Both the position numbers and the translations under genes were made by a program. Of a stretch of 54,512 nucleotides of DNA, positions 21,749-23,849 are shown piece after piece; the stretch's first letter is position 1, and each line of letters starts with the position of its first letter. The notes beneath the pieces are model-generated. The model was given only the letters and a program-made list of their open reading frames with translations. It was not told the origin of the DNA and ran no database searches. Source of the DNA: a virus (lineage: Duplodnaviria > Caudoviricetes); the IMG/VR virus record IMGVR_UViG_3300007363_000026, positions 1 to 54,512 of that record, one strand, 5' to 3'.

Positions 21749-23849
21749 TTACGCGACGATGACGCCGTGACGAGCCGCATTGCTGATGGTCAGGTTGCCC
21801 ATCCAATACAGCGGCGTAACAGTCGCATCCTGGTTGACGGCGACCTTGTCTTTCAACACCACGAAGTTCCGCGATTTCGCTGGACGGAAATGCAGATACT
21901 TCGAATTAATCATATACATACGATTGGTGTTGCAGTTCGGGTCATAGAAGACCGTCGCGCCCTTGTACTTGTAGCCACGGAAACCACCGACTGCCTTTTC
22001 GTTGGCATCCATGAAGCGCTGCTGGGCTTGCAGGCTTTCCTCGAAGTAGGTGAAATAGTTTTCACCGGCTACCACGAGGTCAACGTGTTCCGTTCCGCGT
22101 TCTGCACGGAGATAGATCACGTTCATTGCATGCTGGATCGTCGTCGACGATGCCGTCACGCTGTTGTCGCTGAAGTCGTAATACTGGTTGCGCCACCAAG
22201 TATTGCTGCTGCGATCGATGCCGCCAACCGTGCCAGAGGTCGGAAGATCGGCAAGAAGGTGCTGCAGACCACCGATCGCCTTACCGCCCTGCTCCGTGTT
22301 GGAGTAGAACAGAGAAGCCGAAATGTTGTTCTGCAGAGTGGCCTCTGCGACCTCGATGCGGGCTTTGATGAGGTTGTGCATGGCCTCCGCACCGGAGTTC
22401 TGCACTTCCTCAAGGCCACTCATCGTGACGTTGCAGTTGGCCTGCTTCCAATCGAAGTTTGCCGTCGTCAGAACGTCGGAAGCTTCGACACTGAGGTATT
22501 CATCGATGTGTTATCGCTAGCCTGTTTATGACTAGCTTCTGCATGTCGCCATGCAGTCCAGACTATATCATCGCTTTCGCGTCGGGCATTCGTGGGCGGG
22601 TTATTCTTTCGTCACCGCCTAGTCGTTACACCTTCCACAACCCTGAAAATCCAGAGGATTTCTACGTTTGTGGCTTGGCTCGGTATTGGCTCAGAAACCC
22701 CTCATTTGGTATAGTGAGCGTTCCACCGAATTAACCCGATTTGCTGTTGTTACTCAGGATCGCCATGGCCAAGAGAAAGCTCAAAGGTCAGTACTTCGTA
22801 TGTCAGTACTGCTCTGAAACCTTCTATCGAAGACCATCCCATGTGCGCCGCGGGATCACGAAGACCTGCGGCAAGCGCCAATGCATTAGCGCATCGGCCA
22901 TGGGGGAGAAGAACCCGTTTTGGGGAAAGAACCATTCATCCGAAGTCAAGGAGCACATCAAGAAGATGCGTCGTTCTCGTCCGCCTCGCCCGCCTGGAGC
23001 CGCCAAGTATGGCCCGCTCAAGGGCACTTACGTTGCCAGCAAGGAAGCCAGAGAAAAGATCTCAGCGGCTGTCAAAGCTGACTGGGCAAACAACAGAGAC
23101 AAGAGACTTGCGGCTGTCGCCAAGGGCACGGAAGTTAAGCTCTCAAAGTTCTTCAACAAAGAGCCGCGCCATCGTGTCCGCTTCACTCCAATGCAACATA
23201 AGGAGTGGGGCGAAAAATCTTGCAAGTGGTGTGATGCCACCGAAGACTTGGTTCTTGACCACATCTTCCCGGTAATGGCTGGCGGCACGAACCGAAGGGC
23301 GAATGCCCAAACGCTGTGCCGCAAGTGTAACCTTTGGAAGATGCGCTTTATAGATCGTCCTCTCGTGTTAGCGATGCTGGATAACAAAGGGGCTGATCAC
23401 AACCCGGAGTACCAAGAGCAAGCTGTTACTTTCGCGGACTCCACCGCTACTGACCATCAACCGGATGGCGGGGAAACCTCTTCGGGTCTCCCTCTCTGGC
23501 TTCACAAGAAAGCGTCATAACCAGAGAGCAGACTGTCGCATCCCTTTCGGGTCACCTCGCTCAGTCGTTCACGGCGGGCTGGGTGGCCCTTCCGCCTTGT
23601 CACCCTCGCCAGGGCTTCCAAGTCAATCAGAGGTGATTTATCCACGTCCTAAAGATTTAACGTGCCATTTTCTGCGTACTTGAGGTTCTCCAACAGCTTC
23701 ACGCCACCCGTCGCCGGATCGGTGTTGCCGTTGTTCTTGAGGTAAAGCAGAAGAACGTTGTTCGTGAGAACGTTGTCCGCCAGCTTTGACCGGTAGTTGT
23801 CGATGGTCGTAGTCAGGATTTCGGAATAACTGGTGTTCGGCGCGGCCAT
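21749..23849 (-). CDS. major capsid protein, spliced: join(23849..23659, 23418..23402, 22503..21749), 320 aa
   Basis: Joining the exons gives 963 nt in frame, reading ...KYAENGT-F-SWYSG-Y-EYLSVEASDVLTTANFDWKQ...; located after the scaffold gene. Confidence 0.85.
22504..23401 (-). ncRNA. group I intron 2 (898 nt) with HNH gene in the P2 loop
   Basis: P1 GGGU/GCCC; long P2; P3 UCGGG/CCCGA; P4 UUCGGU/ACCGAG; GUAACGACUA and GAUAUAGUC (P7); extra hairpin between P7 and P3; P9 CUGCAUG-GCGA-CAUGCAG; terminal G at 22504. Confidence 0.9.
22686..22715 (+). promoter_or_regulatory. candidate antisense promoter for the intron HNH gene
   Basis: TTGGCT-18-TATAGT with extended -10 TG, inside the P5 region of intron 2, about 50 nt before ATG 22765. 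Confidence 0.5.
22765..23520 (+). CDS. intron-associated NUMOD3 + HNH homing endonuclease, antisense to the capsid gene
   Basis: AGGA RBS; CQYC/TCGKRQC Zn finger; NUMOD3 GEKNPFWGKNHS.E.K..I; HNH CKWC...LDHIFP...GG.N...N.QTLCRKCN. Confidence 0.85.
   Translation: MAKRKLKGQYFVCQYCSETFYRRPSHVRRGITKTCGKRQCISASAMGEKNPFWGKNHSSEVKEHIKKMRRSRPPRPPGAAKYGPLKGTYVASKEAREKISAAVKADWANNRDKRLAAVAKGTEVKLSKFFNKEPRHRVRFTPMQHKEWGEKSCKWCDATEDLVLDHIFPVMAGGTNRRANAQTLCRKCNLWKMRFIDRPLVLAMLDNKGADHNPEYQEQAVTFADSTATDHQPDGGETSSGLPLWLHKKAS
23402..23418 (-). other. 17-nt micro-exon of the capsid gene (C TCT TGG TAC TCC GGG T)
   Basis: Lies between the terminal G of intron 1 and the U.G of intron 2 P1; restores the frame and encodes SWYSG. 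Confidence 0.8.
23419..23658 (-). ncRNA. group I intron 1 (240 nt, no own ORF)
   Basis: P1 CACGUU/GACGUG with U.G at the splice site; P3 UCACCUC/GAGGUGA; P4 CUUG/CAAG; P7 GACUG/CAGUC; P8 CCC-GAAA-GGG; several P9 hairpins; terminal G at 23419. Confidence 0.85.

Follow-up and report, generated by a model that had tools for sequence, protein, structure and literature searches.

The question raised by IMG/VR record IMGVR_UViG_3300007363_000026, an uncultured freshwater Mx8-type phage contig of 54,512 bases (analyzed here over its whole length, which we call the window), is how an intact major capsid protein can be made from a gene that is broken by a gap of 1155 nt. The structural genes of this phage lie nearly all on the minus strand of the window. 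The capsid open reading frame (ORF) among them starts at 23849 and meets a TAG three codons beyond 23659, with the remainder of the capsid-coding sequence resuming at 22503. We consider it highly probable that the gene is transcribed as a precursor with two unrelated group I introns, which are separated by a micro-exon of 17 nt. The exon structure, the folds of both introns and the presence of a homing-endonuclease gene antisense to the capsid gene are supported by comparison with homologous genes, introns and contigs.

The first step is to establish what has to be joined. Exon 1 (23659..23849, minus strand; 191 nt) encodes amino acids 1–63 and two bases of a Phe codon and ends in U; it is defined by the list of ORFs, by a gap-free alignment with intron-less capsid proteins and by a DNA match to an intron-less relative (L006). 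Exon 3 (21749..22503, minus strand; 755 nt including the stop codon) aligns with the PHROG profile phrog_9953 'major head protein' over profile positions 73–328 of 329 (E 1e-66), and a tblastn search with it recovers the annotated capsid genes of Myxococcus phages Mx8 and Mx9, Bradyrhizobium phage ppBjS10J-1 and Stenotrophomonas phage BUCT555. Between the two lies the micro-exon (23402..23418, minus strand; 17 nt), which completes the Phe codon, encodes S-W-Y-S-G and gives the first base of the next Tyr codon. Joining 23849..23659, 23418..23402 and 22503..21749 (191 + 17 + 755 nt) yields 963 nt in a single open frame coding for 320 amino acids, exactly as had been proposed in an earlier reading made from the nucleotides without database searches (hereinafter the sequence-only reading). 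That reading had also suggested aligning the joined product to intron-less homologues. When this is done with the capsid proteins of ppBjS10J-1, Mx9, Mx8 and BUCT555, which are 319–322 amino acids long, there are zero gaps over both junctions, and the homologues display at this position the conserved WYSG segment that the micro-exon encodes. The identity to the Mx8, Mx9 and Bradyrhizobium phage proteins is 42–43%, and the similarity to annotated capsid proteins extends over the full length, identifying the product as an Mx8-type major capsid protein (phrog_9953). The closer intron-less relative L006, which is 84% identical, provides matching DNA over both junctions, with 15 of the 17 bases of the micro-exon being the same. 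More broadly, a tblastn comparison over two viral-contig scans returned 86 related locus rows, 79 of them uninterrupted at the site, three ending at a contig edge and four (from three contigs) interrupted. Judged by this coding and comparative sequence evidence, the 17-nt micro-exon is real.

The adjacency of the two introns, together with an antisense ORF that spans both, might instead bring to mind a single composite intervening sequence, i.e., a twintron, an intein or a translational bypass that takes up the whole gap and leaves the 17-nt piece as no exon at all. We give this almost no credence, since removal of the full gap joins exon 1 straight to exon 3 in a 946-nt sequence that is out of frame and runs immediately into a stop. 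Moreover, all homologues have the WYSG segment, and a scan of the three sense frames of the gap for a W[YF][SA]G-coding stretch finds it in the micro-exon only; relatives also carry each of the introns separately. With respect to the particular forms, a single 1155-nt intron is rejected on the reading frame, an intein on account of in-frame stops, and a twintron by the coding 17-nt exon that stands between the introns.

Returning to two separate introns, the downstream element, intron 2 (22504..23401, minus strand; 898 nt), is the more readily classified. The Rfam model RF00028 matches it at 22794..22539 (model positions 1–253) with 56.9 bits against a threshold of 50 bits (E 7e-12), and its homologues in related capsid genes score 65.5 bits (L223) and 46.7–49.7 bits (L210–L213, four near-identical contigs). 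Its P1 hairpin (23405..23390; GGGU|UG-loop-CAGCCC), which was also found mechanically, pairs the GGGU at the 3′ terminus of the micro-exon with a GCCC twelve bases downstream and places U23402.G at the splice site, while UCA, the three bases before this guide, can pair with bases 2–4 of exon 3 to form P10. The core, from about 22739 to 22539, comprises P3–P9 with a P7.1 hairpin between P7 and P3′, and the intron closes with a terminal G at 22504. Comparison with L210 reveals nine double compensatory changes in P3, P5, P6, P8 and P9 and no broken pair in these helices except for two gapped distal columns of P6; further compensatory changes relative to L223 were read by eye. P1 and P10 likewise co-vary with the exon, being GGGU/GCCC and UGA/UCA in the window, CGGU/GCCG and UAG/CUA in L210, and, for P1 of L223, GUGGGU/GCCCAC. 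Thus, a score above the RF00028 threshold, a P1 with a U.G, a terminal G and compensatory changes in the core all support the assignment of intron 2 to the group I introns.

The upstream element, intron 1 (23419..23658, minus strand; 240 nt), is a compact intron with no ORF and a terminal G at 23419. Its guide GACGUG (23648..23643) pairs with the exon sequence CACGUU, again with a U.G at the splice site; P3 is formed by 23636..23630 with 23558..23552 and P7 by 23566..23562 with 23535..23531, and there is neither a P2 nor a P7.1. Both introns therefore follow a U, end in a G and have a guide whose pairing with the upstream exon includes a U.G, and they differ in the hairpin between P7 and P3, present only in intron 2; on the U.G, the terminal G and this hairpin the sequence-only reading is borne out. 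The covariance-model search that it had envisaged came out divided, with RF00028 detecting intron 2 and Rfam failing on intron 1, for which the test was accordingly replaced by covariation within its family and by an independent model. Homologues of intron 1 escape Rfam in the same manner, a single one of ten loci with family members (L113) being matched, weakly, at 23.4 bits. Two of them (L007 and L011) occupy the identical position in the capsid gene; their P1 loops are larger, and compensatory changes occur in P1, P3, P5, P8 and P9. Indeed, P1 co-varies as CACGUU/GACGUG in the window versus CACAUU/GGUGUG in L007, and as CAACGGU/GCCGUUG at a shifted site in L223.

To evaluate the fold, P3, P4, P5, P6, P7, P8, P9 and P9a, with the crossing of P3 and P7, were examined as 38 pairs in 43 aligned sequences: 96.2% of the cells can pair as compared to 40–51% with slid partners, 32 of the 38 pairs have changes on both sides, and none of 500 shuffles reaches the observed values. 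One pair of P7 varies between G-C, A-U and U-A. The family thus displays the order P3-[P4-P5-P6]-P7-P3′-P8-P7′-P9 with a P3/P7 pseudoknot and covariation, in addition to a P1 with U.G at the 5′ splice site and a terminal G. A covariance model (R1) built from 40 other members, from which the window and all copies in this capsid family were excluded, finds the window intron at 23644..23464 with 146.2 bits (E about 9e-39). R1 also weakly detects group I cores that have Rfam support (23.8 bits for L210 and 20.9 bits for intron 2 of L223, which RF00028 scores above its own threshold, with 15.3 bits for intron 2 of the window), thereby linking the two kinds of introns. These comparisons support placing intron 1 among the group I introns, in a compact family that goes undetected by RF00028; they likewise support the proposal of the sequence-only reading that two different group I introns lie in the gap.

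The relatives in which the capsid gene is also interrupted bear on whether the two introns arrived together. Numbering sites from that of intron 1 in the window as position 0, the same site harbors intron 1 in L007 and L011 (the tblastn and nhmmer profile of L226 is the same) and, as judged by its 3′ junction, in L218, a contig that lacks the 5′ exon. Site +17 is occupied by intron 2 in the window and in L223. At site +8, L210–L213 possess an intron-2-like element with an antisense HNH gene; in L210 (2188–3092) this lies 9 nt upstream of the intron 2 site, i.e., within what is the micro-exon of the window, and the spliced product is again 320 amino acids long. Site −5 is the position of an intron-1-like element in L223 and probably L224, with its guide re-matched to the new exon in a 7-bp P1, and site −14 is that of a distant member of the intron-1 family in L229 (R1 42.8 bits). 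Consequently, there are five insertion sites within 31 nt of the capsid gene, and five of 24 metagenome loci examined are interrupted at this hot spot. In L007, L011 and L218 intron 1 occurs alone, and in L210–L213 the intron-2-like element is alone and at a different site, in keeping with the independent invasions envisaged by the sequence-only reading.

The tandem arrangement itself recurs in L223 (372–970 of a 2851-nt contig), whose capsid gene is 69% identical to that of the window. Here an intron-1-like element (478–705), a 22-nt micro-exon (706–727) and an intron 2 homologue of 242 nt with no endonuclease gene (728–969) follow one another, and the pieces join into a single open frame. 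A third intron further upstream, which ends at about 371, has a sense-strand ORF.

What distinguishes the longer intron 2 of the window is a gene on the opposite strand. An ORF at 22765..23520 (plus strand; 251 amino acids, its ATG at 22765 being preceded at 5 nt by an AGGA of Shine-Dalgarno type), the sole evident plus-strand gene in the structural module, encodes an HNH–NUMOD3 homing endonuclease, with HNH_5 (3e-10), HNH (1.7e-7) and NUMOD3 (2.4e-7) all above the Pfam thresholds and further matches to PHROG HNH families. Antisense to the capsid gene, it fills two thirds of intron 2 between P1 and P3, which are parted by about 640 nt of this coding sequence. As L223 has the same ribozyme at the same site and no ORF, the endonuclease gene must have been inserted between P1 and P3. 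With its catalytic motif and DNA-binding module inside the intron, it has the makeup of an intron-encoded HNH endonuclease, save for a read-through tail: from about residue 213 the frame continues for about 38 more codons, across the micro-exon and 102 nt into intron 1. A homologue 46% identical to it occupies the same antisense place in L210–L213, next to a group I core and within the same capsid family; that of L210 stops 19 nt inside the intron, a stop which the frame in the window is without. In L218 (1–545), the intron 1 homologue has in its P1 loop an antisense Zn-finger/HNH-like ORF (phrog_1271, E 7e-9) that is cut by the contig end, suggesting that antisense endonuclease genes accompany both intron families. 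The antisense HNH gene, like the relatives with separate introns, the tandem of L223 and the five-site cluster, had been overlooked in the sequence-only reading.

Several lines of evidence pertain to whether the locus is genuine. Logan contigs of other sequencing runs hold the same DNA, one run being without differences over the pieces listed, and these independent contigs make an assembly artefact unlikely. Contigs of another study contain a variant, diverged by about 5%, that extends over intron 2 and its endonuclease ORF, the micro-exon, and intron 1 apart from a few bases. Among the 40 of its 107 difference rows that are listed, 24 differences fall within 22805..23148, and 19 of these lie at third codon positions of the endonuclease frame, which points to purifying selection on that frame. 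Three joints in contigs (22486>23588, 23495>23608 and 23632>23668) match none of the predicted splice junctions; their short sides have 90% likeness, and they probably come from relatives. The first of these, in a contig of run X12, connects a point 17 nt into exon 3 with the P4–P6 region of intron 1 and skips 1101 nt; its shorter side has 30 letters at 90% likeness, and the contig, which is no splice product, probably derives from a relative with an intron-1-type insertion only. Four runs labelled RNA-Seq were judged to be probably DNA; their contigs carry the unspliced locus and have no bearing on expression either way.

A number of observations weigh against a capsid gene that is spliced from three exons. 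The contig is from an uncultured phage and has a completeness rating of 85%; none of the sequencing runs with this DNA is on record as RNA, and the predicted junctions occur in no contig. Intron 1 falls short of the RF00028 membership threshold and has no Rfam match even at E ≤ 10, its assignment to group I resting on architecture and covariation and not on a curated model or on catalysis. Its P10 has two pairs at best, and P1 of intron 2 has just four pairs with the exon. The read-through of the endonuclease ORF into intron 1 could be a sign of decay, and the sigma-70-like site about 50 nt upstream of its ATG is a single find where 0.6 would be expected by chance. The completeness rating, the lack of RNA evidence in those runs and the loss of the usual stop of the endonuclease ORF would also fit a pseudogene in a defective or decaying phage, with the insertions being dead remnants of mobile elements that are not removed. 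We deem such a pseudogene very unlikely, because the three exons are intact and in frame and retain conserved residues, both ribozyme cores hold their pairing through compensatory changes, and the 5%-diverged variant retains the architecture, with differences mainly at synonymous (third) positions of the endonuclease frame. Furthermore, L223 maintains its open frame through an equivalent tandem.

If the capsid gene is indeed spliced as we propose, we infer from the predicted folds that each intron would fold on its own, intron 1 through the pairing of GACGUG with the end of exon 1 and intron 2 through that of GCCC with the GGGU that closes the micro-exon. Two guanosine-initiated transesterifications would then excise each intron, and the outcome would be a 963-nt mRNA for the 320-amino-acid capsid protein. 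In unspliced or half-spliced RNAs, a stop follows either 5′ splice site by no more than three codons (an in-frame TAG 3 codons into intron 1 and a TGA 2 codons into intron 2), which would halt ribosomes on such RNAs. Stops shortly after the 5′ splice site are usual in phage introns. Since the two guides recognize unrelated exon ends, the introns should be able to fold and splice independently. The micro-exon would serve both, as the sequence-only reading had noted, as 3′ exon of one intron and P1 strand of the other; its first bases contribute to the weak P10 of intron 1 and its last four to P1 of intron 2, with no overlap. The same reading had raised the concern that exon skipping might limit capsid synthesis; we find that skipping looks disfavored, because the guides read unrelated ends (CACGUU versus GGGU) and because the skipped product would meet an immediate stop and be truncated to 64 residues. 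An exon of 17 nt (22 nt in L223) would have to accommodate the docking of two ribozymes, which makes the locus a natural test of the minimal exon context for group I splicing.

A related concern is that one or both introns might depend on a protein of the phage or the host, or might splice in vivo only, with splicing efficiency limiting the supply of capsid protein. There is precedent for this in the Bastillevirinae, where, of eight introns reported to splice, four required infected cells to do so (PMC11878797). In intron 2, the short P1 and its separation from P3 by the antisense coding sequence might have a similar effect. Yet the core is intact in its helices and in the conserved joining segments J6/7 and J8/7, and the L223 version without the endonuclease gene suggests that the same core works with a P1 that adjoins P3; on balance we regard such a dependence as unlikely. 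In the independent splicing that we favor, intron 2 would in addition be mobile: the HNH–NUMOD3 endonuclease, presumably expressed from its own signals, would presumably cut intron-less capsid alleles near the WYSGY-coding site. Repair would co-convert the ORF-less intron 1 along with intron 2, given the distance of only 17 nt between them.

How far is this arrangement precedented? Intron 2 is akin to the T4-type introns in having a core with a P7.1 hairpin, and its J8/7–P7–P9 region is 80–90% identical over 45–70 nt to introns in records of T4-like and phiKZ-like phages. It departs from them in that its host gene codes for a capsid protein and its endonuclease gene is antisense and placed between P1 and P3. 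In the T4-type IA2 introns (td, nrdB and nrdD) the ORFs are in sense and located in the P6 or P9 loops. The view in the sequence-only reading, which places the classic phage group I introns in genes of nucleotide metabolism or replication, has been superseded, as capsid introns have been published (PMC3706429, PMC7886860). The closest parallel is the major capsid gene of mycobacteriophage LittleE, with an intron, most likely of group I, whose splicing was established by reverse-transcription PCR and N-terminal sequencing (Pope et al. 2013, PMC3706429); an intron in the capsid gene of lactococcal phage Tuc2009 is cited in the same paper. As in the window, the LittleE intron follows a U, ends in a G and has an endonuclease ORF on the bottom strand. 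In contrast, the LittleE gene has a single intron with a LAGLIDADG-like ORF and neither a second intron nor a micro-exon; splicing is demonstrated there and predicted here (PMC3706429). A gene of Staphylococcus phage Twort has three group I introns and undergoes exon skipping (PMC3073962), and is thus comparable in having several such introns in one phage gene and in raising the question of skipping. However, the Twort introns are reported to resemble one another, whereas those of the window are unrelated and have different guides, making cross-reaction less likely (PMC3073962).

On a larger scale, group I introns are typical of core genes, including the capsid gene, in crAss-like phages of the Delta group, and one capsid gene of the Zeta group is in five fragments (PMC7886860). 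The Jug jumbo phages have small (~206 nt) group I introns, with a mean of 18.5 per genome, and of 76 predicted introns examined, 37 have metatranscriptome reads in support of splicing (PMC12880540). These phages belong to different lineages and habitats, and the excerpts of the two reports contain no description of a micro-exon, an antisense endonuclease or an insertion hot spot (PMC7886860, PMC12880540). Homing-endonuclease genes antisense to the ribozyme are known from nuclear ribosomal DNA (rDNA) group I introns, such as I-DirII of Didymium (PMC3073962) and the L2066 introns (PMC9548176). Like the gene in the window, they lie on the strand opposite the ribozyme and need a promoter of their own; unlike it, they belong to eukaryotes and involve Pol II promoters, spliceosomal introns and enzymes of the His-Cys box type, as opposed to a phage gene of the HNH type (PMC3073962). 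A single search of a limited library for a micro-exon between phage group I introns brought up, among papers that deal with group I introns, only mitochondrial and other non-phage work. Thus, introns in capsid genes and phage genes with several introns have been described before, and the parts are of known kinds; what is new is that two different ribozymes flank an exon of 17 nt (or 22 nt), that an HNH gene lies antisense between P1 and P3, that five insertion sites form a hot spot, and the size of an intron-1 family that is undetected by the Rfam model.

With respect to that family, a motif scan followed by nhmmer (E ≤ 1e-5) confirmed members in 84 of 118 pattern-matched viral contigs, and at least two copies are present in 14 of the 118 pattern loci; the raw pattern matches are possibly largely due to chance, and only nhmmer-confirmed loci were kept. 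Its range takes in other capsid genes, portal genes and a split ribonucleotide-reductase gene, and the Rfam group I model misses the whole of it. The last of these is in Roseobacter phage CRP-118 (L216, 2473–2872; OR420741.1), where a 400-nt gap between two coding sequences annotated as 'ribonucleotide reductase' contains a member (nhmmer E 1e-23, R1 93.8 bits); no intron is annotated there, and both the phage and its host are cultured. In a major head protein gene of a different family (phrog_1357; L038, 1046–1480), two introns of the family lie about 37 nt apart, and a portal gene (phrog_156; L068, 3900–4700) is preceded by two or three of its cores about 265 nt apart. Standard annotation would yield fragments of this capsid gene and overlook the 17-nt exon; hence, truncated proteins are probably more frequent in metagenome-derived phage proteomes than has been recognized.

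Finally, we tentatively raise a more speculative possibility, which we think somewhat doubtful as it stands: that the 31-nt stretch coding for the conserved ...AENGTFSWYSGY... segment is a contested landing pad on which at least three intron lineages have settled at five positions. Under this proposal, the tandem introns might act as weapons or shields between co-infecting phages and not as neutral parasites, intron 1 would spread in the co-conversion tract of intron 2, and the compact intron-1 family would be a major, under-counted presence in phage structural genes. If so, an incoming intron would disrupt, by its insertion, the site that a rival endonuclease recognizes, leaving introns side by side with exons of 17–22 nt between them. 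The five sites in 31 nt, and the same ribozyme with and without an antisense endonuclease gene, make such competition between introns and endonucleases directly testable. Two insertions in this capsid family have boundaries set from the reading frame only and no Rfam match at E ≤ 1: the intron of about 260 nt in L229 (2195–2455), which is that of site −14, 14 nt upstream of the intron 1 site of the window, and, about 70 nt downstream, an 876-nt insert with a LAGLIDADG-like ORF in L174 (603–1478).

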